Positions 1,758-37,684 of a stretch of DNA of 55,960 bases are shown one piece after another (position 1 is the first letter of the stretch; each line of letters begins with the position of its first letter). The stretch lies in the IMG/VR virus record IMGVR_UViG_3300029893_000010, positions 1 to 55,960 of that record. One strand, 5' to 3'. This stretch comes from a virus. Lineage: Duplodnaviria; Caudoviricetes. The translations under genes and the position numbers were made by a program. A model generated the notes under the pieces. That model was not told the origin of the DNA and did no database searches. It saw nothing but the letters and a program-made list of their open reading frames with translations.

Positions 1758-4207
1758 TATTCCTCCACTTCCGCGATGGCGTCCGCGCTCCAGTGACTAG
1801 GACTCCAGCGCAATTGGATCGAGGGCGTCACTTCGTTGTCCATCAGGATGGCAAACTCGTTGCTTCCAGGCAGCAGGTACACGGCACGAAGTTCCGAGCC
1901 GGGTTGAAGGCTGGAAAGCAGGCTTCCACGCGAGTAGGATTGTATCGTTCCGCGTGCGAAATCGATCTCCACTTCTTCGCCCTCGAAAATCGACAGGTTG
2001 AGGTAGATCGCCTGTTTGGTCGCAAGGTTTTCGATATACCTCACGGTCGCCTGCCCGAGCACATACAGGATCGGGAACACACCATACGAGCCGGAATTTG
2101 TGACCATGTTATAGGCAGAGGTGTAGGGGGCAAAGGCGGCATCCAAATCGGTAGCCACATAGAGGACGCCACGGATCTTCGAGAAAAGCAGCCTGCGGAC
2201 GTAGCCGCTCCCGAACAGGTTGCCTTCCAGGTTCGTCCATGCCCCGTTCGTGTATTTTGCCATTTTATAGAGCGCGCCGTATTGAGGCGAGGCGGTGAAG
2301 TTCCCGCCGATGTACAATTCTCCAAACTCTCCAATGTCCATGGTCAATGCGTAATTATCCGAGAGCGACAGGATCTCGAACCACGAGCCGCCTCGGTACT
2401 CCCAAATCTTTCCGAGCACATCCCCGCTTTGGACAGTGGAACAATAGGCGATGCCATCGTTGCGAACAATGATGCTGTGTCCACGGGATATTGAGGCGTC
2501 TGTCAGCCCATCCCCAAGCGGGGAGATCAAGTTGGTGGTCGTGTCTATCTGCGCAACATGTTCGTAGACGGGAGTTCCTCCAACCGCTCCGGTGAACCCG
2601 CCACAAACATACAGGATGTTCGGGTCGGTCGTTTTTGTGATCCAGTTTACTGACAAATTGAAACCGCTCACCGCGCCAACTGTCCGATATTGAGTTCCAT
2701 CCCAGCGTGCAATGCGATAATATGGGGTTGCTCCACTCCATAGTGTTGTAAAAGTTCCACCAATGTAGAGTTGTCCGTTGTCTGCAACACATAATGTGTT
2801 TACGGGACCGCCAAGTCCAACCCCTACGGCGCTCCAAACACCGGTGTTGAGGTTGTATTGGGCGATGCTTACGGAACTAACTGCACCATTGACCTGCGTA
2901 AAGTTTCCCGCCACATACAGGATGCCGAGAGGGTGAATGGCAAGGCATGTTCCGCCATTATTATTCACATATCCCAGCAGGGTGACGGTCTCGCCGTCAA
3001 ACGAGATGATGTTCGAGTTTCCGCCTGAATTGACGCTGGCATACAATGTTCCGTCTGGTCCCTCTACAATCGCCAGTACGTCACCAGTGATGTAGGACCG
3101 CAGGCTGGACCATTTGTCGTTCTGGTCACGCACCCAGATCGTGCCGTCGCTTACGGACGGGTAATTCGTTTTCCAGTTCAATTGCAGGACATCCTGGCTG
3201 TCCTCCTGCCAGTCCGGGTCAACCGCCAGAAAACGGACAGGCATGGAGTTCGTCCAGGCATTGCGCACATCCCATGATCCATCCAAGCCGCCGTCATAGC
3301 GCAGGCGGATGTACAAAGGCCGGTCGCCTTCGGTGTCCGAATATTCAAAGAGGAACGCTTCTCCGCCTACGGTGCGGTCCGGCTTGAACAGGTCGACCAA
3401 TTGCTGCCGGAGTGCGTGCAGGGGAGTGAGGTCTGGTTCGGGCTGGCGTTGTTGCGCCTCCTCCTTGACGTAGAAGTTCACGGTCATGACACGCGAGTTG
3501 ATCTTGGTGTTGTCGTACCAGGCGCCCGGAGCATTGCCCCACGATTGGGTGTTGTTGGTGATGGGCGCCATGCCGAAGCCGGTCAGGGCGGTTACGTAAA
3601 TATTGCTGTTCTGCCTGCATGGTCCAGCCAGGTCAACCCATTTGCCGCCAAGCCGCGTATCCCCGTCACGTCTGGAGGTGCTTGCGCCACGCGTGATGTT
3701 CCAGACACATCCGGGCTGGTCTCCATCACAGTAGGTGGTGGCATACGCCTTGCGCTCCAACTGCGCTCCATCCACGTAGAACGTTTCGATCTGTGGAGAC
3801 GCATCGGAAGTTTCCACATAGAGACGCAGGTCGTTCGTTCCGGTCGAGAACCCGGAAACGCTCAAGCGCGTCCATTGACGGTCGTTGACTGCCACGGCAT
3901 CCGATGAATACGAAGTTCCGCCACCGTCCCGCAGACGCACCCGCAATTTTCCCGTGCCGCGCACATATACACTGACCGTGATCGGCTCGCTGACCCCATT
4001 GAGACCGCTGACACGATAATATATGCCTTCGTTGACCGCCGATCCGGCTGTCACGACCCTGCCGCTTGCAATTCCAAATCGGGCGCGATCCAGCGAGCGG
4101 GTCAGGGTCGCCCCAGAGGTCGTCCAGCCGGTCGTGTTCTTTCCGAAGTTCGGGTTTTTGATGTAATTGATGGTGCTTTCAGGTACGAGTACGCGTAGAT
4201 TTATCAT
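1757..4207 (-). CDS. Evolved distal tail protein (Dit) with N-terminal carbohydrate-binding module and inserted beta-propeller
   Basis: Follows tape measure. NYIKNPNF...VDGAQLE CBM-like N-terminus, G-GGxFT propeller repeats, C-terminal LLPGSNE Dit motif. Confidence 0.7.
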   Translation of the reverse strand: MINLRVLVPESTINYIKNPNFGKNTTGWTTSGATLTRSLDRARFGIASGRVVTAGSAVNEGIYYRVSGLNGVSEPITVSVYVRGTGKLRVRLRDGGGTSYSSDAVAVNDRQWTRLSVSGFSTGTNDLRLYVETSDASPQIETFYVDGAQLERKAYATTYCDGDQPGCVWNITRGASTSRRDGDTRLGGKWVDLAGPCRQNSNIYVTALTGFGMAPITNNTQSWGNAPGAWYDNTKINSRVMTVNFYVKEEAQQRQPEPDLTPLHALRQQLVDLFKPDRTVGGEAFLFEYSDTEGDRPLYIRLRYDGGLDGSWDVRNAWTNSMPVRFLAVDPDWQEDSQDVLQLNWKTNYPSVSDGTIWVRDQNDKWSSLRSYITGDVLAIVEGPDGTLYASVNSGGNSNIISFDGETVTLLGYVNNNGGTCLAIHPLGILYVAGNFTQVNGAVSSVSIAQYNLNTGVWSAVGVGLGGPVNTLCVADNGQLYIGGTFTTLWSGATPYYRIARWDGTQYRTVGAVSGFNLSVNWITKTTDPNILYVCGGFTGAVGGTPVYEHVAQIDTTTNLISPLGDGLTDASISRGHSIIVRNDGIAYCSTVQSGDVLGKIWEYRGGSWFEILSLSDNYALTMDIGEFGELYIGGNFTASPQYGALYKMAKYTNGAWTNLEGNLFGSGYVRRLLFSKIRGVLYVATDLDAAFAPYTSAYNMVTNSGSYGVFPILYVLGQATVRYIENLATKQAIYLNLSIFEGEEVEIDFARGTIQSYSRGSLLSSLQPGSELRAVYLLPGSNEFAILMDNEVTPSIQLRWSPSHWSADAIAEVEE

Positions 4208-14579: not shown

Positions 14580-17396
14580 CTACGCGACTAGCGGTTCTCC
14601 CAAAAATGACGAAACATCATTGCTCTCCCCCACCGCCGCATTGGAGATAACGCGGTAGGTAGGATCGCCATCCGAATTCACAATGCCGAGCAGGTACGCA
14701 GCATCCCCCACAAACACGGTTTTTAGTCTGTGATAATCGTTGTTGGCGAAACGATACGTCACACTCGGGTCCACACGAGACCGTATCGAGAACGGCTCGC
14801 CACGATCTCCGATGTATTCAATAGTCACCATCACGCTCTTGTCGTTGGTTTCAATGGCAGCCTTGAGGCTTTCCATCGTGAAATTCCCAGACGATTTTAG
14901 CAGTGATGCCGGGACGGTGGTCACTGGTGTTTTTGGTTGAGAACATCCACACATGATCTGTTTTTCTCCTCTCCGATATACACTCCACTTTTCGTCAATA
15001 TATCGGACGATCTCATCTATTTTATCATGGTCTTTTTCTCGTTTTGTAGATGTGTTCATTCGATAAACAAAAAGAGGCTCCGGTATCCTATATGCACAAT
15101 ATCCAAGATGGTGCACACCGATCTGGAAATCCCAATCCTCCATTCCAGGAATGCGCTCATCAAAGCCACCCTGCATTTCCATCATCGATTCTACAATGGC
15201 TCTTGGAAAAAGGATGGATGATCCAGGATACTGCATGGTATGGATAACAAGGGTTGAGTCAAATTCATTGTACGAATTTATCCTGGTTCCTTCCAGTGTT
15301 GAAAGTACAATGTCTGAAAAGATCACTCCGTAATTATGTTCCGCAGTGGACACCATTCTCTCAAGGAACCATGGCATCCAATAATCATCGGCGTCCATCC
15401 AGACAATATATCTTCCTCTGGTGTGCTTGAAACCTTCGTTTCTGGCTGCCGAAGCGCCTCGGTTTCCGTCCATGTTTATGACGCGCGCCCACGGTGCGCC
15501 CATGATGTCGTTTTCCCATGCTTCTCCTGTATCGTTCACCACTACAACCTCCCAATCAGGGTAGGTCTGCGCCTGAATGGAGTCCAGCGCATCGATCAGA
15601 TATTTTCTGTGACCTGGTCCGCATGTCACAACGATGGAAACAATCGGGTTGGCGTAGTCGTGGACATACCAAAAACCGAGGTTTCTTGGTGGGTTTCCCT
15701 GCGCGCCAAATGGAACAAGATACGAATTCCTCGGGCTCTCTCCACGCTGACGAAGTACATCCCGCGCCTGATCGAAGTTTGTAGCGCCCATCCGCCAGGG
15801 GAACCAGGCTGTCCAATCCGGTTCGGCGACTTCGTTCTGCCACTCGGTCGCGCCCTTGCTGTCGTGGCGCTCCCGGTGATAATAGGTTACGGCTTCTGTG
15901 AACTTATGTGCCCGAAACCCCAATGAGGTCACGCGGCACCAAAATTCCGCATCTTCATTGCGCTTCATGCGTTCCCGATAGCCGCCAGAGCGTTCGTAGA
16001 CCTCCCGTCGTGCCATCACACAGGATGGAAGTTGGTTGAGGTGCGCCATCTGATGATACCAATTGTATTTTGCTGGAGGCCACCCGCCTCTTACCGGCTC
16101 TCCATGCTCAAGAACTCTGCTTCCATCTGTACGGACGACCTCGAGATGACCATAGACAATATCAACAGAACGGTTGGTGTCCAGTTCATGCGTCTCAAGT
16201 TCAAGAGCGGACGGGGAAAGAAAATCGTCAGCGTCCAGATGTCGAACATACCGTCCGCTTGACAGCGATAGCCCGTAATTCCGAGCACCGGGAAGTCCAA
16301 GATTTTCCGGGGTTGGAGCGTAACGGATACGTTGATCTGTTTTTGCATGGGTTTCCACGATCTTTCTGGTGGACGCAAGGTTGGCGTCATCCACCACGAT
16401 GCACTCAAAATCCCTGAATGTCTGCTCCTGAACACTGTCCAGGCATTGATCGATGTATTCATCCAGTTTGTATGCGGTCACGATCACGGACACCTTCGGC
16501 GCAGGCGTGTTCCATTTCCGATACACATCCATAAAGAGTTCGGCATACTGCTGGATGCGCGGTTCCCAACTCCAGTTTTTTCTGGCATCCTCCACACAAT
16601 TGGCAGATAGTCGGTCACGCTCCGACAGACAGAGTTGTATGCACTCCCTGAGTGCCCTGTAGTCTCCGGGAGGGGCAAGGTATCCGGTTTCGCCCTGTAC
16701 GATGATCTCAGATTGGCCTCCCCAATTCCAGCCAGCCACAGGCACACCGCTTGCCAGCGCCTCGAGCGTTCCAATACCAAATGTTTCCCGTGCAGTGGCA
16801 AGGTACACTCCCGCTCCTGCAACGACAGGTTTCATCTGCTCGTATGGCTTGACACCGATGATCTTCACGTTCGGTGTGTGGGTGTACATTTTGTTTTGTG
16901 AACCAATCGTGGTTCGGAATTCTACGTCCTGTGTCATTTCCGCGATACGGATCATGTCTCCGGGATCAGAAACATAATCGGCGCGAGCCTTGTTCCACAA
17001 GACATAGTTTCCATGATCTTTGGACGGCTTGAACTCATCGGCGTTGACACCGTGATATATGACCTTCGGATACCAAAATCCGCCGCGGCGGATGGCGCGT
17101 GCCACCCATTCGCTCGGAGCGGTATGTGCCGTGGCGGTGTGCATCGCTTCCACGACCTGCCGGTTCACTTCCATGAACCCATCTCCCCACGGCTGCCTGC
17201 TCCACATGAACCCGTGCCCGACATGCACGACAGGAATTCCAGGGAGGTGCTCGTTTGCACTTCCATGGTTGCAGATCACGTCGGCGGATCGAATGTCGTC
17301 CACAACCTCGACTCCGAACGATGGCAGGTAGCGCACCTGCGCATCGATCACGCGCCGGATGCCGTCAATGGCCTTCTTATTGATATAAACTTTCAT
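14580..17396 (-). CDS. Multidomain glycosyltransferase (GT4 + GT2 + GT2 + C-terminal domain)
   Basis: ETFGIGTLEALASG (GT4 Ex7E), two VSxIV...VVDD/VVND...DADD GT2 domains; start MKVYINKK with GAGG RBS. Confidence 0.9.
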   Translation of the reverse strand: MKVYINKKAIDGIRRVIDAQVRYLPSFGVEVVDDIRSADVICNHGSANEHLPGIPVVHVGHGFMWSRQPWGDGFMEVNRQVVEAMHTATAHTAPSEWVARAIRRGGFWYPKVIYHGVNADEFKPSKDHGNYVLWNKARADYVSDPGDMIRIAEMTQDVEFRTTIGSQNKMYTHTPNVKIIGVKPYEQMKPVVAGAGVYLATARETFGIGTLEALASGVPVAGWNWGGQSEIIVQGETGYLAPPGDYRALRECIQLCLSERDRLSANCVEDARKNWSWEPRIQQYAELFMDVYRKWNTPAPKVSVIVTAYKLDEYIDQCLDSVQEQTFRDFECIVVDDANLASTRKIVETHAKTDQRIRYAPTPENLGLPGARNYGLSLSSGRYVRHLDADDFLSPSALELETHELDTNRSVDIVYGHLEVVRTDGSRVLEHGEPVRGGWPPAKYNWYHQMAHLNQLPSCVMARREVYERSGGYRERMKRNEDAEFWCRVTSLGFRAHKFTEAVTYYHRERHDSKGATEWQNEVAEPDWTAWFPWRMGATNFDQARDVLRQRGESPRNSYLVPFGAQGNPPRNLGFWYVHDYANPIVSIVVTCGPGHRKYLIDALDSIQAQTYPDWEVVVVNDTGEAWENDIMGAPWARVINMDGNRGASAARNEGFKHTRGRYIVWMDADDYWMPWFLERMVSTAEHNYGVIFSDIVLSTLEGTRINSYNEFDSTLVIHTMQYPGSSILFPRAIVESMMEMQGGFDERIPGMEDWDFQIGVHHLGYCAYRIPEPLFVYRMNTSTKREKDHDKIDEIVRYIDEKWSVYRRGEKQIMCGCSQPKTPVTTVPASLLKSSGNFTMESLKAAIETNDKSVMVTIEYIGDRGEPFSIRSRVDPSVTYRFANNDYHRLKTVFVGDAAYLLGIVNSDGDPTYRVISNAAVGESNDVSSFLGEPLVA

Positions 17397-17413
17397 GCTT
17401 CCTCGTTGATGAT

Positions 17414-18136
17414 CTAATATACAGGATAGGTCTTTGGTGGAACAACATGAGAACGGGTGTGGATGACCCCGTTCAGCCACACATTTCCATCTCCATGGAA
17501 TTCCCAATCCATCTCCCTGCCTCCCTCGAGCGGCACGACCCGGCTCTTTTGTATCCAGAACTCGGAAGGTTCCGGTTCTTCGATGGCGGGTTGAAGGATC
17601 GGGATATACACATCCCATGCCCGACCCGGGTTGATGATCTCGGTTCCGTTCCGAAGAATTGCGACAGCCTTCCAGAAACGATACGGTCGAAAGAACCAAT
17701 TATCGATACGGGGGTCAAGCAAATCCGTGTTCTGCTCGTTCGGGTAGGTGAGAACCTTGTAGTGTGTTGCTGTTTCTCCGGTAATGGCAATGATTCCGCC
17801 TCCACACACAACAGGTTCCGCCCGGCCGGTGGTGTATCTGTCATCGGGACGATACGCCCCATCCCCATCCACATTGATCCACATCAGATCGACACTGCGA
17901 GCATACCGAAATCCATCCTCATTGTTGATCTTCTCGATGTATCTCCACCAGTTCGCCTTTACGGAAAACCGGTCTCCTTTTTGCTCTCCATATCCATAAT
18001 TTTGCATACGGATGACATCCGGGAAATATGTGAGTTGAGGAAAACCCGTGCGGTTCGGGTCGTGCTTGACAAGCGCAAGACGAAGGCGTTCACGAACGAT
18101 CCTTTTTCTGGTGTAACGCACCTGGATGGTCTGCAT
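17414..18136 (-). CDS. Hypothetical protein
   Basis: 240-aa ORF in operon with coupled neighbours. Confidence 0.6.
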   Translation of the reverse strand: MQTIQVRYTRKRIVRERLRLALVKHDPNRTGFPQLTYFPDVIRMQNYGYGEQKGDRFSVKANWWRYIEKINNEDGFRYARSVDLMWINVDGDGAYRPDDRYTTGRAEPVVCGGGIIAITGETATHYKVLTYPNEQNTDLLDPRIDNWFFRPYRFWKAVAILRNGTEIINPGRAWDVYIPILQPAIEEPEPSEFWIQKSRVVPLEGGREMDWEFHGDGNVWLNGVIHTRSHVVPPKTYPVY

Positions 18137-18139
18137 TGC

Positions 18140-18565
18140 CTACTCCATGCCGTACGGTTTTCCGTCCACGAATATTTCCCAATCTTTCAGGTCGATCCCG
18201 GTGGGAGATTGGAGATTAATCTGCTTCGCGTCCGGGTCGATCATGAAACCAAAAATAACAGTGGAACCAATTGGAGCAGGAGGCTCCGGCTGTTCTTCAC
18301 CCGCGGGCAGAGGAAGATCACCAGACAACGAAGTGGCAAACCATTCGGGGTGCGGCTTCGTTCCGCGATATTTGACCGCAACATAACGCCCTGGAAACAC
18401 CGAAGTGAGTTGAACCCACATCTCATCTGCGGTGTTCTTGACGATGATGCCTGAGAATTTTTGAAGCGATGAAAGGGTTCCAACCTGGTCAAGGGCAGCC
18501 ACCTGCGCAGCCTTTCGCACGGTGATCTTTGCTCCGGCATTCACCTGAAATTGATAGTCAGTCAT
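18140..18565 (-). CDS. Hypothetical protein (SH3-like N-terminus plus Pro-rich linker)
   Basis: ITVRK...VGTL...W pattern and PEPPAP linker; AGGAG RBS. Confidence 0.55.
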   Translation of the reverse strand: MTDYQFQVNAGAKITVRKAAQVAALDQVGTLSSLQKFSGIIVKNTADEMWVQLTSVFPGRYVAVKYRGTKPHPEWFATSLSGDLPLPAGEEQPEPPAPIGSTVIFGFMIDPDAKQINLQSPTGIDLKDWEIFVDGKPYGME

Positions 18566-18568
18566 GTT

Positions 18569-19480
18569 TCACTCTCCTTTTTTCTGCCACCAGTCTATCG
18601 TTTTTTTCAATCCATCACGCAGGGGTGTGAACTTCATTCCCGTGCATGTTCGGATCGCCCAATTATCCATGTACACGCTTCCGCGTGGGTCATGCGAGTT
18701 TGTGTGTTCCCATTTATAACCCCGAACATCACAAAGATCTGCAATCTCGTCAACAACCTCGTTGACAGAATGGCTTTTTCCGGTCGCAAGGTTCATCGTT
18801 CCGTCCAAATCGTCCACGGTGGCTAATAGGTGTGCATACGCAACATCCTCGACGAACACAAAGTCCCGTTCCTGCCGTCCGTCACCCACGATTTTGAAGT
18901 CTGTTCCGTTGAAAAAATGGGACAATGAGCGGGCGATCACCTGGTTTTCACCAATGGACACCTGTTTCGGACCATAGACATTAGCGTAGCGAAAGATGCA
19001 ATGCGGAACATCGCTTTGCCGGATATACCATTCGGCAGCCAGTTTGCTGATGCCATACGGGCTGTCAGGCATAAGGGTCGAGTGCTCCTTCAATCGCCCC
19101 CAACGCTTCCGACCATACACTGCCGAGGTGCTCGAGAACACGAACCGTCTCACATTGTATCTTTTTGCCATGGCAAGCAGGTTGAGGGTCCCGACGATGT
19201 TGACCCGTGCGTCCTGCGCCGGGTTTTTCTCGGATACGGATATTGCGGACTGTGCTGCAAGATGGTGGATGATGTCCGGCTTGTAGATCGAGAATTTCCG
19301 CTGGAGCAATTGGTTGTCGGCAACATCGCAGATCTCGATGCTTCCGCGAAATCCTTTCAGGTTCTCGGTTCGTCCGGTGACAAAATTGTCGATCACTACG
19401 ACCTTATGACCATATTCTTCCAATGTTTTGGCGACATGGCTTCCGATAAAGCCAGCGCCACCAGTAACCATGATGTTCAT
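18569..19480 (-). CDS. NAD-dependent nucleotide-sugar epimerase/dehydratase (GalE-like SDR)
   Basis: GGAGFIG, SSTSAVYG, YGISK, RYANVYGP, RDFVFVED. Confidence 0.9.
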   Translation of the reverse strand: MNIMVTGGAGFIGSHVAKTLEEYGHKVVVIDNFVTGRTENLKGFRGSIEICDVADNQLLQRKFSIYKPDIIHHLAAQSAISVSEKNPAQDARVNIVGTLNLLAMAKRYNVRRFVFSSTSAVYGRKRWGRLKEHSTLMPDSPYGISKLAAEWYIRQSDVPHCIFRYANVYGPKQVSIGENQVIARSLSHFFNGTDFKIVGDGRQERDFVFVEDVAYAHLLATVDDLDGTMNLATGKSHSVNEVVDEIADLCDVRGYKWEHTNSHDPRGSVYMDNWAIRTCTGMKFTPLRDGLKKTIDWWQKKGE

Positions 19481-19884
19481 AGCGGTTTTCCGTTCGTATC
19501 GTAAGTCATATTTTCCTTCTCGTAAACGATGGTGTCTTTGAACACCTCGAAGCCAAGAGCCTTCAAGCGGACGATCATCAGGTGTGCGGCGAAAATGTTG
19601 CTGGAGTGGACGCGCATGACCGGCTTTTTCTTTCCGAACGGCCAGCCTGTCTTTTCAATATAACGCACGATCTCCATCCCGCAGGTTGGCGTGTCAGGGT
19701 CCTGAAAGTCATGCCCATTCAGGTCGTGGTCAAGAGAGACAAAGTCCCAATCGCTGCTGGACATCTGCTGAAGCGCCTCGGGTACGCAGGTGGCAATCGT
19801 CACATCGTAACCCTTGAGGTTCTCCAGCGCCCAATGAATTCGCTTTGTGCGGTCATCCACGAAGAGGAGTTTCTTCATCATCAC
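19477..19884 (-). CDS. Receiver-like domain protein (cyclic-phosphate-processing REC type)
   Basis: LFVDD, VSLDHDL, VHSSN motifs. Confidence 0.7.
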   Translation of the reverse strand: MMMKKLLFVDDRTKRIHWALENLKGYDVTIATCVPEALQQMSSSDWDFVSLDHDLNGHDFQDPDTPTCGMEIVRYIEKTGWPFGKKKPVMRVHSSNIFAAHLMIVRLKALGFEVFKDTIVYEKENMTYDTNGKPL

Positions 19885-20117
19885 ATCTCACCTCTCATCC
19901 TTGCCATCGTCCGAAGGTAACGACGACGGTGGCGATTTTTCCTTATCTGCCTTTCTATGCTTTCCGGGTCGTTCATGAAATCGAATATATCAGGGTGCAT
20001 TACCGAGAACAATTTCATTCCGTTCTGTGTGGATTCTTTGGCGGCGTCCGCGGCTTTTTTGAAAGCGTTCCCAAGTTCCTGCAATGCCTTCACTAGGGAT
20101 TCCATATCAATTTCCAT
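19881..20117 (-). CDS. Hypothetical protein
   Basis: Overlapping starts and stops within the operon. Confidence 0.5.
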   Translation of the reverse strand: MEIDMESLVKALQELGNAFKKAADAAKESTQNGMKLFSVMHPDIFDFMNDPESIERQIRKNRHRRRYLRTMARMRGEM

Positions 20118-21078
20118 AGATGATTTTACTTCCTTCCATTTCTATTCCAAAATCGACCTTACGCAGACCTGTTTCGCGCAGAATGTCACGGTGGGTTGAC
20201 ACAGGCGCCAAAACGAACATAAATCCGCCTCCTCCGGCGCCAAGAAGTTTTGCGCCCCATCCTCCGCATCGCAAAATGTCCTTATGCCATTTGTCAACAT
20301 TGGGGTTGGTGATTCCGGATGCAAATGTGCGCTTGAGACGCCAGCCCTCATCCATGATGGCTGCAAGATATTTTATGGAAGCACCGCTGACCATGGCTTG
20401 ATGGAATTCCTGCGCAAGTTCTGTCATCTTTTTCATGGACGAAACCGAACGCCCTTCATGGGCATTGAGAGACTGTTCCTTGAGGATTTCGTTCGCAGAA
20501 CGTCCACTGCCTGTCCATAGAAGAAGGGCATGTCTTTCAAAGTCGTCCACCCACTCCTGTGAGACGTTCAACCTGCGTATGCAAACGTTCCGCTTTCCAA
20601 AGGTGATGTAGTTTACGCCACCGTAAGCGGCCGCATATTGATCCTGCTTTCCAACCGATGCGCCGCACTCTGTCTCGACCGTCCATGCCCGTTCCGCAAG
20701 GATGGCGCGCGGGTCAAGATCTTCGGGGTCTTTCAGGAGAGCCTTGAGGAGTCCAACCGTGAAGGAACTTGAAGATCCCAGCCCGCTGCCATGCCCCGGG
20801 ATGTCCGCCACGGACGTGATCTCAAGATGGTTGAATATTTTCGTCATACCAAGCGCGGTACGGACCAGATCGTGCTGGATCTGGTTGCGGCTTTCCACGT
20901 CCTCGGTCTTGGAGTACGAAATGCGAAACCCATCCTCGAAGCGTTTGTTGCATGAAACATACACATATTTCTTGATTGCAAAGTTCACGACCGCGCCAAG
21001 GTGTTTTTCGTAGAACGACGGAATGTCCGTTCCGCCTCCGATCAGGGAGATCCGCAGGGGTGTGCGTGTGATTATCAT
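20107..21078 (-). CDS. hddA: GHMP kinase, D-glycero-alpha-D-manno-heptose-7-phosphate kinase-like
   Basis: RTPLRISLIGGGTD, GSGLGSSS, GKQDQYAAAYGG, GAKLLGAGGGG. Confidence 0.85.
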   Translation of the reverse strand: MIITRTPLRISLIGGGTDIPSFYEKHLGAVVNFAIKKYVYVSCNKRFEDGFRISYSKTEDVESRNQIQHDLVRTALGMTKIFNHLEITSVADIPGHGSGLGSSSSFTVGLLKALLKDPEDLDPRAILAERAWTVETECGASVGKQDQYAAAYGGVNYITFGKRNVCIRRLNVSQEWVDDFERHALLLWTGSGRSANEILKEQSLNAHEGRSVSSMKKMTELAQEFHQAMVSGASIKYLAAIMDEGWRLKRTFASGITNPNVDKWHKDILRCGGWGAKLLGAGGGGFMFVLAPVSTHRDILRETGLRKVDFGIEMEGSKIIYGN

Positions 21079-21767
21079 TGCCAACTCTTTTCTGTGCCAA
21101 TGTGCTTCCAGGCGCCCCACACAGAAATTCCAGCCGGTCTCCATATCCACGGACCCGTATTCAGGCGGTACTGGTCATCCATGTGCAGTTCGATATTCCC
21201 TGGATTCCTGTCCTCCGCAAACCATCCGTATGCTTTTGTAAATCTTGCATGACGGATATAGGGATTGCCAGAGTAGGCATATTGGGTACTTTCCATGTAT
21301 TGCAGGAACATTTCGCCGTTACAGCCTACGGTGTGGACATCGGCTCCAGACGAAAGGATGCGATAGGTGATCGCTCCAACATCCTCCCGATCCGAAAGGA
21401 TGCGCATGTGCCGGGTGATGTCAAGAGTCTCGTCAAGGTTCCAGTCGTCCTCCAGCCAAAGTACATAATCGCTGAATTGATGGCAGATACCGAGCCCTTT
21501 GTTCCAGCCAATCCCGGCGTTGTGAGTATCCTCTTCGCCTTCATTGCGTATCCTGGCACTATGGAATCCGATGATGCGTTCGTTATTCTTCTCTAGCAGT
21601 TCCATGATTGACGCCATGTGATCCTGCGGGGATCCATCGTCCGCAATGTACCATCCGCGATTTTCCTTTGGATAACAAAGGTTTTCGCATGTCGATTTTA
21701 TTGTTTTCAGCGCCACTTCGGTGCGCTTGTATGTTGCAATGCAGATCGCAAGGTTAGGCGATGTCAT
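21075..21767 (-). CDS. GT2-like glycosyltransferase
   Basis: ICIATYKR, IADDGS, WLEDD. Confidence 0.8.
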   Translation of the reverse strand: MTSPNLAICIATYKRTEVALKTIKSTCENLCYPKENRGWYIADDGSPQDHMASIMELLEKNNERIIGFHSARIRNEGEEDTHNAGIGWNKGLGICHQFSDYVLWLEDDWNLDETLDITRHMRILSDREDVGAITYRILSSGADVHTVGCNGEMFLQYMESTQYAYSGNPYIRHARFTKAYGWFAEDRNPGNIELHMDDQYRLNTGPWIWRPAGISVWGAWKHIGTEKSWQ

Positions 21768-22701
21768 TCTTCAACAACTCCGCAAGTTCTTCCCTGGTAA
21801 GCCGCTCTGCGTTCTCGCTCGTGAACGGGATTCCCAATTCTGTTACGACCCTCTGTGTCGTTGTCGGTCGGACGACAAAGAAATCGTCGTGACTGCGAAC
21901 GAACTCAGCCTCCTCGAGAGACACAAGCGTTTCGTGTTTCTTCTCTCCGGGACGCATCGGAACCTGCCGATTGCCATGTTCTCCAATGGTGTAATCGAAT
22001 AACTGCTGGATGGACAATGACTTGAGTTTCGGAACGTAGATCTCACCGCTCTCCAATTCCAAACAATCCTCCACGATCTTTGCGGCGTGTGCAGGGGAAA
22101 GCCAGAAGCGGGTCATCTCCGGGTCTGTGATGGTCGGGGTTTCACCGCGCTCGATCTGCGCCTTCCACACCTCAATGACAGAGGCGGTGGACTCCAGTAC
22201 ATTCCCATACCGGACAAGGTGAAACTTTGTGTGAACAGGCAGGCGCGAGTATTCCTGAAAGATCTTCTCCATCAGATACTTTGTGGCGCCGTAGGCATTG
22301 GCTGGATGACAGGCTTTGTCGGTCGAGATGCCGATCACGCGATCAATTCCATGCTGGATGGCTGCGTTGGCAACATTGATTGACCCTTCTACATTGATAT
22401 GGTATGTGTCAATTGAGTTGTATTCACTTGTTGGGATCTCTTTCACTGCCGCAGCGTGAATAACGATGTCGTGTCCCGCCATTGCGTTATAAAGCGTGGT
22501 GTAGTCCCTTACATCACCAACAACTGTATGTATAAATGGAAAAAACCTTTTTATCCGAGCGTGCTTTGTTGGATCTGTTGAGAAAATGGTTATGTGATTC
22601 CCGTAATCCCTCTCTATACACCTTCTTATTATTTCCGTTCCAAGGGTGCCACACCCTCCAGTCACGAAAAGTCTTGCGTTATTGAAAGCATTTTTACTCA
22701 T
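21754..22701 (-). CDS. UDP-GlcNAc 4,6-dehydratase-like SDR (PseB/FnlA/CapD family)
   Basis: TGGCGTLG, HAAAVK, ISTDKA, YGATK, RYGNVL, RPGEKKHE. Confidence 0.9.
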   Translation of the reverse strand: MSKNAFNNARLFVTGGCGTLGTEIIRRCIERDYGNHITIFSTDPTKHARIKRFFPFIHTVVGDVRDYTTLYNAMAGHDIVIHAAAVKEIPTSEYNSIDTYHINVEGSINVANAAIQHGIDRVIGISTDKACHPANAYGATKYLMEKIFQEYSRLPVHTKFHLVRYGNVLESTASVIEVWKAQIERGETPTITDPEMTRFWLSPAHAAKIVEDCLELESGEIYVPKLKSLSIQQLFDYTIGEHGNRQVPMRPGEKKHETLVSLEEAEFVRSHDDFFVVRPTTTQRVVTELGIPFTSENAERLTREELAELLKNDIA

Positions 22702-35965: not shown

Positions 35966-36504
35966 GCCATCCCCTGTAACTGCCGTACCACCGCATGTGC
36001 CACCATCAGGTGCAGATCCTCCTGCACCCGGATGTCGTCCGCCATCACATGCACCAGCGCGTTCAGCCCAATATTGTTGATCTCACTGGACAGCGACGGT
36101 CCAGTCATCCCAACCGACAGGATGCCCTCGTCAACCCCATACGACAACGTACGAAGAACGTTCTCAGAATTTCCTGAACACGAGATGCCCACCAATCCGT
36201 CCTTCGGACGAACCAGACCACGCACCAGATCCGAGAACATGTTCCGCCACCCATTGTCATTCCCATACGCGAATACAGAACTGCTCATATCCCCCACGCA
36301 CATTGCCTTCACCTTCGCCACCTTCACAAGGTCGTTCGCCAGATGACTCGCTGTGGCATGACTCCCTCCGTTCCCGAACAGGTACACCGTGCCTCCGTTC
36401 CGCTTTACCACTTCCAACATCATCACCATCTGGTCGATCTCGTCCATGTTCAACAATGTCATCGCTTCGCTGACTTCCGATAGATGCTTCCTGATCTGTG
36501 TCAT
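35962..36504 (-). CDS. gmhA: Phosphoheptose isomerase (SIS domain)
   Basis: FGNGGS, AYGND, GISCSGNSENV, VQEDLH. Confidence 0.85.
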   Translation of the reverse strand: MTQIRKHLSEVSEAMTLLNMDEIDQMVMMLEVVKRNGGTVYLFGNGGSHATASHLANDLVKVAKVKAMCVGDMSSSVFAYGNDNGWRNMFSDLVRGLVRPKDGLVGISCSGNSENVLRTLSYGVDEGILSVGMTGPSLSSEINNIGLNALVHVMADDIRVQEDLHLMVAHAVVRQLQGMA

Positions 36505-36636
36505 ATTATTCTCCTTTTGATGTGCATTATACCGTTTTATTCCTGTTAGGTAATGGGGTTTGGATTGAAATTTGAGATATTTTTTATTTCAGGTAGTGCG
36601 TGTTGGAGAGAAAAGAAAAGAATAATTTTCGTTTTT

Positions 36637-36650
36637 AGAACATTTGTTCA
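36637..36650. promoter_or_regulatory. LexA-type SOS box
   Basis: AGAAC-ATTT-GTTCA (GAAC-N4-GTTC) in the divergent intergenic region. Confidence 0.5.
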
Positions 36651-36716
36651 TTCCAGGGGTTGACCAGGGGATTTTTTTCTGCAATGTTTCTGCAATGAAA
36701 TTGCAATGAAAAACAC

Positions 36717-36744
36717 TTGCAATTTATATCATTTGTGCTAAAAT
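36717..36744 (+). promoter_or_regulatory. Early promoter
   Basis: TTGCAA-N16-TAAAAT with an extended TG. Confidence 0.6.
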
Positions 36745-36878
36745 ACATACAGATAAGAAAAACAGCACACTGACAACTGAATAACCTGTACTGAAAAAGG
36801 AACGATCTATGATTGACTAGCAAGATTGAGCGAGCGGATCATAAATCGGAGATGCAAAACCTACCAGTGATAACAGGA

Positions 36879-36937
36879 TGATAGTCTGGTGAATAAATCA
36901 CCACTGAGGAGCGGTAGCACGATCCGCGAAACTATCA
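36879..36937 (+). ncRNA. Type III hammerhead ribozyme
   Basis: TGATAG-TC | TGGTGA-ATAAA-TCACCA | CTGAGGA | GCGG-loop-CCGC | GAAA-CTATCA. All three stems are perfect, the core is complete, and the GUC cleavage site follows 36886. Confidence 0.9.
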
Positions 36938-36952
36938 AACAAAGGATACCCA

Positions 36953-37117
36953 ATGAACCGATACACAACCGAGATCCTCCCTAATGGCTATATCCGCATA
37001 TACGACCGCCGCAGCCAGTGGGCGGGGCTGTACACCACAGACGGAAAGTACCAAAACGGGAACCTACGCCTTTCATGGGCGGATGCTATCAAGATCATTA
37101 TGGGAGTCGTGAGATGA
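36953..37117 (+). CDS. Small early protein
   Basis: AAAGGA RBS; manual translation MNRYTTEIL... Confidence 0.6.
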   Translation: MNRYTTEILPNGYIRIYDRRSQWAGLYTTDGKYQNGNLRLSWADAIKIIMGVVR

Positions 37118-37290
37118 CAATCACTCTCTTTGGCTATCGCGTAACTATTTTCAAGTTTGAAAAACTGGAAAAATTCGCAGCAAGCATTGACACTGCCGGC
37201 GCCCGCCGTGACGCAGAACAGATCAAGAATTCGGCGCAATTCGCCGACCTCAAAGCAAAGGCCGCAGCGATCCGCGCGGCGAGAGGATAA
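37114..37290 (+). CDS. Small early protein
   Basis: ATGA coupling; GGAG RBS. Confidence 0.55.
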   Translation: MTITLFGYRVTIFKFEKLEKFAASIDTAGARRDAEQIKNSAQFADLKAKAAAIRAARG

Positions 37291-37293
37291 ACC

Positions 37294-37446
37294 ATGAAAA
37301 AAAATACTTATTACCCTACAAATAAAGGCACGACATTACAAGAAAAGCGGGCGATCCGGCGCGGGTGGATCAACTATGTTTTGCAAAGTGGCAAGTACTC
37401 ACTGTCAGAGATCAAAAAAGCCGTCAGATTTTACGAAATGCGATAG
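37294..37446 (+). CDS. Small early protein
   Basis: GAGGA RBS; MKKNTYYP... Confidence 0.55.
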   Translation: MKKNTYYPTNKGTTLQEKRAIRRGWINYVLQSGKYSLSEIKKAVRFYEMR

Positions 37447-37471
37447 TTTGTCATAACGAAAGGAAAAAATC

Positions 37472-37684
37472 ATGAACCAAGTAAGCCGCCTTTGTTGGAT
37501 TATTGAACAGCATATCGGACACACTCGAAAATTCACATCCACAAAAAGAACCATTGAACTGTACCGCTTTGTTGGGACCCGTATACAAAGCGTCTCACTT
37601 GTTGTAGACCTAAAAAACCCGCGACTATTATCACTGCGCCGTGAAGTTAGGCGCATGGTAAAAGCGGGGTGGAGAGTTTACTAA
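37472..37684 (+). CDS. Small early protein
   Basis: GAAAGGA RBS. Confidence 0.55.
   Translation: MNQVSRLCWIIEQHIGHTRKFTSTKRTIELYRFVGTRIQSVSLVVDLKNPRLLSLRREVRRMVKAGWRVY

Follow-up and report, generated by a model that had tools for sequence, protein, structure and literature searches.

The stretch of DNA analysed here (the window) is 55,960 nt long, spans an entire virus record with an estimated completeness of 96%, and represents a tailed phage of ~56 kb. Its + strand carries a complete type III hammerhead of 59 nt at positions 36879-36937, and the structural definition of this type is confirmed by the core, the stems and the topology of the element. We consider it probable that this is a genuine hammerhead, probably constitutively active, which lies in the 5' leader and would cut that leader off the mRNA of the rightward operon. 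The motif, first proposed in a sequence-only reading, is confirmed as an observation; its interpretation is supported at the level of sequence, with cleavage as a prediction.

The RNA of the + strand can be written as UGAUAGU-C-UGGUGA-AUAAA-UCACCA-CUGAGGA-GCGG-UAGCACGAU-CCGC-GAA-ACUAUCA (36879-36937). Its two ends pair to form stem III (7 bp, UGAUAGU 36879-36885 with ACUAUCA 36931-36937), which is open, and the other two stems are closed by loops, as is typical of type III topology. Stem I consists of 6 bp (UGGUGA 36887-36892 with UCACCA 36898-36903) and is capped by the loop AUAAA, and stem II consists of 4 bp (GCGG 36911-36914 with CCGC 36924-36927) and is capped by the 9-nt loop UAGCACGAU. 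The CUGAGGA core box is found at 36904-36910 and the GAA of the core, located 5' of A15.1, at 36928-36930. All core positions agree with the consensus (C3 U4 G5 A6 N7 G8 A9, G12 A13 A14, A15.1-U16.1, and C as H17). Pairing is of the Watson-Crick type in 17 of 17 stem pairs, and the pairs adjacent to the core are intact (1.1-2.1 U-A, 10.1-11.1 G-C, and 15.1-16.1 A-U, the last formed by A36931 with U36885). The sequence-only reading had given the same coordinates, the same stem lengths with three perfect stems, and a full core. It had also placed the cut after 36886, which is where C17 of the GUC cleavage triplet is located; cleavage is predicted between C36886 and U36887.

Such ribozymes are often accelerated by a loop-loop pseudoknot, and tertiary contact between loops 1 and 2 is needed for fast cleavage at low Mg2+. 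Loops 1 and 2 of the window element display no complementarity (Watson-Crick or G-U) of more than 2 nt, a comparison that does not extend to non-canonical contacts, which cannot be judged from sequence. When folded alone, the hammerhead has a free energy of -17.2 kcal/mol (z -2.49), a value equalled by 7 of 200 shuffles, and the segment containing the stem I hairpin (36887-36908) has one of -6.7 kcal/mol. In the minimum free energy (MFE) fold of the 225-nt leader region (36751-36975), stems III and I are retained as a separate domain.

The fold of the leader also bears on whether cleavage might be conditional. GCGGAUC at 36834-36840 is perfectly complementary over 7 nt to GAUCCGC at 36921-36927, and pairing between the two would break stem II, in which case a signal or the speed of transcription would decide whether the RNA is cut. 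Regulated cleavage of phage hammerheads is raised as a possibility in PMC3088659. For the window element we consider it very improbable, as in both the MFE and the centroid fold of the entire leader the hammerhead stems are retained and 36834-36840 has other pairing partners. Furthermore, with a leader of 135 nt and an element of 59 nt, chance alone could by a rough estimate well produce a 7-mer match, and a comparison of conservation is impossible with relatives that lack the ribozyme.

A descriptor was defined as the hammerhead core with stems of at least 4/3/4 bp, and the only match in the window is 36879-36937. When 300 first-order Markov shuffles of the window were searched, 10 matches were obtained at 4/3/4 bp and none at 6/4/7 bp. 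No type I or type II hammerhead was found elsewhere in the window. A covariance model (R1) was generated from 24 other phage type III hammerheads, the window element being excluded; these were 24 of 27, with L016, L081 and L129 left out of the alignment as long-loop members misplaced by MAFFT. With filters off and both strands of the 55,960 nt searched, R1 aligned over its entire length (model positions 1-50 of 50) to the window element with 41.0 bits and a rough E-value of 1.3e-8. The runner-up among the 12 matches listed in the window scored 10.2 bits.

The sequence-only reading had proposed an Infernal search with Rfam Hammerhead_3 as a check, which succeeds only with relaxed filters. With 76 nt searched, RF00008 (Hammerhead_3) aligned in full (model positions 1-54 of 54) with 33.7 bits and an E-value of 2.5e-6 for that search, but this score is below the curated gathering score of 48.5, and thus below the Rfam annotation threshold. 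The larger scans were empty: there was no Rfam match in the whole window at the gathering score, nor in 401 nt at E-values up to 10. The blanks in these two scans are tentatively attributed to speed filters. Because its score is below gathering, standard Rfam annotation would not file the window element. The RF00008 seed comes mainly from viroids and plant satellite RNAs, whose type III hammerheads have the same topology and core as the window element, in keeping with the full-length RF00008 alignment. Those hammerheads process intermediates of rolling-circle RNA replication, whereas the window element is found in an mRNA leader of a DNA phage.

A blastn comparison of 36500-37500 with GenBank phages gave no match. 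With 36870-36950 as the query there were 3 short matches within genes, which were taken as chance, and an exact 17-mer search of viral contigs gave 2 matches in coding-like sequence with no hammerhead around either.

These searches also bear on the possibility that the motif is a hammerhead look-alike, arisen by chance or by decay and devoid of cleavage activity at physiological Mg2+, its hairpins serving as passive 5'-UTR structure. The Rfam score below gathering, the lack of orthologues (see below), the lack of a loop-loop pseudoknot and the long loop 2 would all fit a look-alike, and inactive hammerhead-like RNAs are listed in PMC3088659. Nevertheless, we regard this explanation as quite improbable. 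Agreement of all core positions with the consensus and intact core-adjacent pairs are the acceptance criteria of that same study, no comparable match arose in the 300 shuffled windows, the R1 score of the element stands far apart from that of the runner-up, and its position and orientation fit those of the class described below.

The window is organized in two opposed arms, as judged from PHROG matches (40 ORFs). Genes for the tape measure, tail, glycosyltransferase and large terminase are found on the - strand up to 36504, and small ORFs together with repressor-like, replication initiator, DnaB-like and methyltransferase genes are found on the + strand from 36953. This places the hammerhead in a divergent control region, in the sense orientation relative to the replication-side (rightward) operon, which appears from its gene content to be an early operon. 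Embedded in the structural arm is a cluster of genes for glycosyltransferase-like and nucleotide-sugar epimerase-like proteins (14580-22701, - strand). Among them are a 1039-aa multi-glycosyltransferase ORF (14580-17699) and epimerase-like ORFs (18569-19480 and 21754-22701). Such a cluster is an unusual cargo for a siphovirus-like phage.

According to the sequence-only reading the hammerhead is located downstream of a promoter, and a promoter-like site of the sigma-70 type in the sense orientation is present at 36717-36744 (+ strand; TTGCAA, 16 nt, TG-c-TAAAAT), as identified by a promoter scan and by alignment with relatives. The number of sites in the scan is not above that in shuffles (2 found, 1.8 expected); the window site aligns with the -35 and -10 boxes of four related loci (L143, L144, L145 and L002). 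Three direct TGCAATG repeats with 11-bp spacing (36680-36708, + strand) lie just 5' of the -35 hexamer, which itself falls inside a fourth TGCAAT copy. Similar copies are found in L002, and the repeats are likely operator sites. Based on the -10 box, transcription would start near 36751. The leader RNA 5' of the ribozyme would then comprise ~128 nt (36751-36878, + strand), and the RNA released by cleavage ~136 nt, close to the ~135 nt estimated previously.

The divergent control region also includes a GAAC-N4-GTTC inverted repeat at 36638-36649 (GAACATTTGTTC), and similar boxes are present in the corresponding region of both L002 and L143. The repeat resembles the LexA box (Cheo box) found in SOS systems of the Gram-positive type, and through it the switch might respond to DNA damage in the host.

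At its 3' end the ribozyme is separated by 4 nt from a Shine-Dalgarno-like AAGGA (36942-36946, + strand) and by 15 nt from the ATG at 36953, in agreement with the earlier claim that it ends just before the ribosome binding site (RBS) of the first ORF. The AAGGA is located 6 nt 5' of this ATG, which starts ORF1 (54 aa, 36953-37117, + strand), the first ORF of the rightward operon. No homologue of ORF1 beyond itself was found, and it has no PHROG match. ORF2 (58 aa, 37114-37290, + strand) starts with an ATG that overlaps the stop codon of ORF1 (ATGA). It is conserved in a relative from sequencing run X9, where it follows a different upstream sequence, and no relatives of it were found in viral contigs. 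Twelve sequencing runs were listed, all in the form of contigs and with shares of at most 0.22; habitat labels based on such small shares were set aside. Close relatives occur in runs X1, X7 and X9, and the contigs of runs X1, X9, X4 and X7 leave 36752-37103 uncovered. In the X9 relative, the last 30 letters before the position corresponding to 37114 contain CGAAAC twice and an AAAGGA RBS. This pair of CGAAAC motifs may mark the 3' portion of a further hammerhead or be no more than a repeated GAAAC.

The opposite strand offers another explanation, namely that the element acts there or as DNA, where it might for instance terminate antisense transcription. A weak terminator-like site (7 pairs, 3 of them G-C) can be recognized at 36916-36899 on the - strand, but it is the complement of stem I and the core. 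There is no promoter-like site on the - strand in 36400-37200, and this explanation gives no reason for a perfect hammerhead core on the + strand. We therefore consider this explanation barely conceivable.

In the preferred reading, that of an active hammerhead that trims the mRNA, the operon would be transcribed from the promoter at 36717-36744 and the 59-nt element would fold as a domain of its own. It would cut itself co-transcriptionally between C36886 and U36887. The detached leader RNA of ~136 nt would carry a 2',3'-cyclic phosphate at its 3' end. On the operon mRNA a 5'-OH would directly abut the stem I hairpin (36887-36903), and an open RBS would follow 55 nt further on. The outcome would be a defined, leader-independent and probably stabilized mRNA 5' end, comparable to a natural counterpart of the synthetic RiboJ. 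We infer the transcription start, the cleavage, the chemistry of the ends and the effects on stability and translation. Hairpins at the 5' terminus are protective for bacterial mRNAs; in hosts that have RNase J, an mRNA with a 5'-OH end can be destabilized rather than protected, as is known from the literature on the glmS ribozyme. The AAGGA at 36942-36946 is unpaired in the centroid folds of the uncleaved leader and of the cleaved mRNA alike. Since it is already unpaired before cleavage, exposure of the RBS does not need the cut.

Relatives of the locus were collected by means of a neighbouring 180-aa protein, which has 2 relatives in viral contigs, 56 in metagenome contigs and 14 in metagenome-assembled genomes (MAGs). 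An assignment of the host from the MAGs was dropped, as these 14 relatives display 28-40% identity (39-40% for the best) and come from several phyla. R1 gave no match at E-values up to 1 in 71 of the relatives' loci (259,117 nt; L212 left out). The descriptor gave 5 loose matches in 58 of the loci (in L181 and L192), which span 121-153 nt with huge loops and were rejected. The absence of the hammerhead from the 71 loci indicates that it is sporadic in this lineage and leaves no covariation between orthologues to draw on. Compensatory change among orthologues, a supporting criterion that is not part of the definition of the fold, was accordingly not found.

By contrast with the ribozyme, part of the leader is shared. 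An nhmmer search with 36762-36870 detected homology in the leaders of L143 (E-value 3.3e-4), L145 (0.028) and L144 (0.14). No ORF is conserved between the leader of the window and these three leaders. The consensus fold of the leader reaches only -5.46 kcal/mol, with no convincing shared fold, and the leader has no match in Rfam. In L143 and L145 the slot occupied in the window by the ribozyme, between the shared leader and an A-rich spacer with the RBS, contains a stable hairpin instead (-28.9 kcal/mol in L143 and -15.2 kcal/mol in L145), the stability of which is equalled by none of 200 shuffles in either case. The label 'terminator' was considered for this hairpin and dropped, as a terminator scan does not flag it. 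L002, which is the closest relative by the 180-aa protein (63%), has the promoter and the repeats and lacks both the leader and the ribozyme.

This distribution would also allow a different emphasis, in which the main job of the ribozyme would be to generate the 3' end of the conserved ~136-nt leader as a free small RNA with a cyclic-phosphate end and an action of its own, any effect on the mRNA being secondary. The retention of 36762-36870 in L143, L145 and L144 despite differing first ORFs is consistent with such a role, as is the start of the ribozyme 8 nt past the conserved part; the slot hairpin of L143 and L145 could likewise define the 3' end of an RNA. A free RNA of this kind would, however, be one that has neither a convincing conserved fold nor an Rfam match, that is missing from L002, and whose end in L143 and L145 would be set by a hairpin that a simple scan does not call a terminator. 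In addition, the rule followed by the class is proximity to a downstream start codon rather than to a conserved upstream RNA. Taken together, these points make the free-RNA role unlikely.

Two further differences between the related control regions were observed. At ~2215-2275 of L143 and ~2225-2275 of L145 (both - strand), palindromes of the TGACAAATGTCA type are found where the window has TGCAATG repeats (36680-36723). The operator-like repeats differ between relatives that have the promoter and leader in common, a pattern that looks like distinct immunity specificities built on one scaffold. Within the conserved leader, L143 (~2125-2063) and L145 (~2127-2068, both - strand) have a GTG-started ORF of 19-20 codons after AGGAACGG, and the homologous ATG of the window (36809-36820) starts a 3-codon ORF only (ATG ATT GAC TAG). 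The GTG-started ORF may encode a leader peptide that was lost in the window, or may be no gene at all.

Although the window element has no orthologue among its relatives, it resembles a class of compact type III hammerheads in other phages. A viral collection was searched with the degenerate pattern AGTC...CTGANGAG...CGAAACT, which gave at least 117 stretches, and among those listed there were 26 descriptor matches, one of which, L062, in which loop 2 has 24 nt, is doubtful. A pattern with stem I fixed gave a single match, L123, and one with stem II fixed gave 19 stretches; of these 20 loci, 7 fit the type III descriptor and not one is orthologous to the window element. The class is built of a stem I of 6-7 bp, a loop 1 of 4-8 nt and a stem II of 4 bp, in the frame AGUC...CUGANGAG...CGAAACU, and the window element is built alike. 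L056, L111 and L114 have the stem III of the window element and a 5-nt A/U-rich loop 1 (stem III of L056 is GAUAGUC/GAAACUAUC), and a group comprising L125, L127, L135, L137 and L138 has its stem II (GCGG/CCGC). The window element differs from the 24 model members at position 7, which is G rather than U, C or A, and in loop 2, which has 9 nt rather than 4-6 nt. Outside the core no relatedness was detected between it and the class members from IMG/VR, and orthology is not demonstrable. Within the class, 133 cells have changed on both sides of a pair; members were chosen for their pairing, so this covariation is circular and was not counted as evidence.

The match L123 is of a different kind. 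At 2996-3022 (- strand) it can be read as a type II hammerhead, open at stem II, ~35 nt 5' of AAGGAG and an ATG, and its stem I is that of the window element (UGGUGA/UCACCA with a 5-nt loop). The same stem I in different topologies suggests convergence or module shuffling.

The members of the class share a genomic position. Among the matches listed, 25 of 28 non-redundant members (that of the window included) are located outside ORFs of at least 100 aa on either strand. Placement was scored as a Shine-Dalgarno-like motif and a start codon, the latter opening an ORF of 40 aa or longer, no more than 40 nt from the 3' end. This was found for 18 of the 28 members (17 of 27 without the window; again among the matches listed), at distances of 8-31 nt. 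As controls, 1400 positions drawn at random gave 131 cases and 2800 drawn from non-coding sequence gave 231 (8.3-9.4%). The binomial probability is ~1e-12 with the window element excluded, a value to be read with the proviso that some members are related pairs and rows are not fully independent. The window element itself, intergenic and in the sense orientation with 15 nt to the ATG at 36953, displays the same placement.

A functional parallel is provided by RiboJ, a synthetic insulator based on the type III hammerhead of sTRSV, which carries an added downstream hairpin. Like the window element it is positioned between promoter or leader and RBS, where it cuts off the 5' leader; RiboJ is engineered, while the window element is natural and its cutting is predicted. 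In E. coli, RiboJ increases protein 2- to 10-fold and transcript ~2-fold (PMC6206723).

Natural precedents are described in the survey of Perreault et al. (2011; PMC3088659), which reports hundreds of bacterial hammerheads, many of them in prophages. Prophage hammerheads cleave in vitro and in E. coli, and it is suggested there that they process polycistronic phage RNAs, although the function of phage hammerheads is called unclear (PMC3088659). The closest counterpart is HHphage of the haloarchaeal viruses HF1 and HF2, which is located 13 nt 5' of the first early gene's start codon, compared with 15 nt here, and for which the mapped 5' end of the transcript is at most 3 nt from the cleavage site (PMC3088659). 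Both elements belong to tailed dsDNA viruses, are found in the early region and precede the first ORF of a polycistronic unit. HHphage has an atypical insertion in its core and is linked to high salt, whereas the core of the window element is fully canonical and its phage is bacterial; furthermore, the gene downstream of HHphage encodes a helicase and that of the window the 54-aa ORF1 without relatives. The three hammerheads around ardA in Agrobacterium tumefaciens and the hammerheads of PaP3 and Bcep176 are, like that of the window, DNA-encoded, intergenic and in the sense orientation (PMC3088659). One hammerhead of this group is found immediately 5' of a gene, and the group is proposed to process phage transcripts (PMC3088659). 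Hammerheads of this group are often multiple and flank genes, whereas the window has a single copy, which follows a conserved leader at the head of an operon.

Our confidence in an active, mRNA-trimming hammerhead derives from the perfect core, the R1 score of 41.0 bits as opposed to 10.2, the absence of equivalents in 300 shuffles and the placement shared with the class. Support is also lent by the HF1/HF2 precedent, the effect of RiboJ and an RBS that is unpaired in the cleaved mRNA. It is weakened by the missing loop-loop pseudoknot, the long loop 2, the Rfam score below gathering, the absence of an orthologous hammerhead and an ORF1 without relatives.

The window provides a clean hammerhead with a canonical core that heads a phage operon and that standard Rfam annotation would miss. 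Routine pipelines may under-annotate compact phage type III hammerheads. An arrangement of this kind was published in 2011 (PMC3088659), so the case described here is an incremental addition. In the literature consulted there was no general statement that phage hammerheads cluster before RBSs, and the supplements of PMC3088659 may list similar cases. The placement close to the RBS, together with the hairpin in the same slot of relatives, suggests a role in setting and capping the 5' ends of mRNAs. As a tentative generalization, about which we are more doubtful than confident, ribozymes and plain stable hairpins might, in the lineage of this phage, be interchangeable at one slot between the conserved leader and the first RBS, and hammerheads 8-31 nt before a start codon might represent a widespread phage 'RiboJ' device. 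If this is true, tailed phages would use compact hammerheads to provide operon mRNAs with promoter-independent, hairpin-capped 5'-OH ends.
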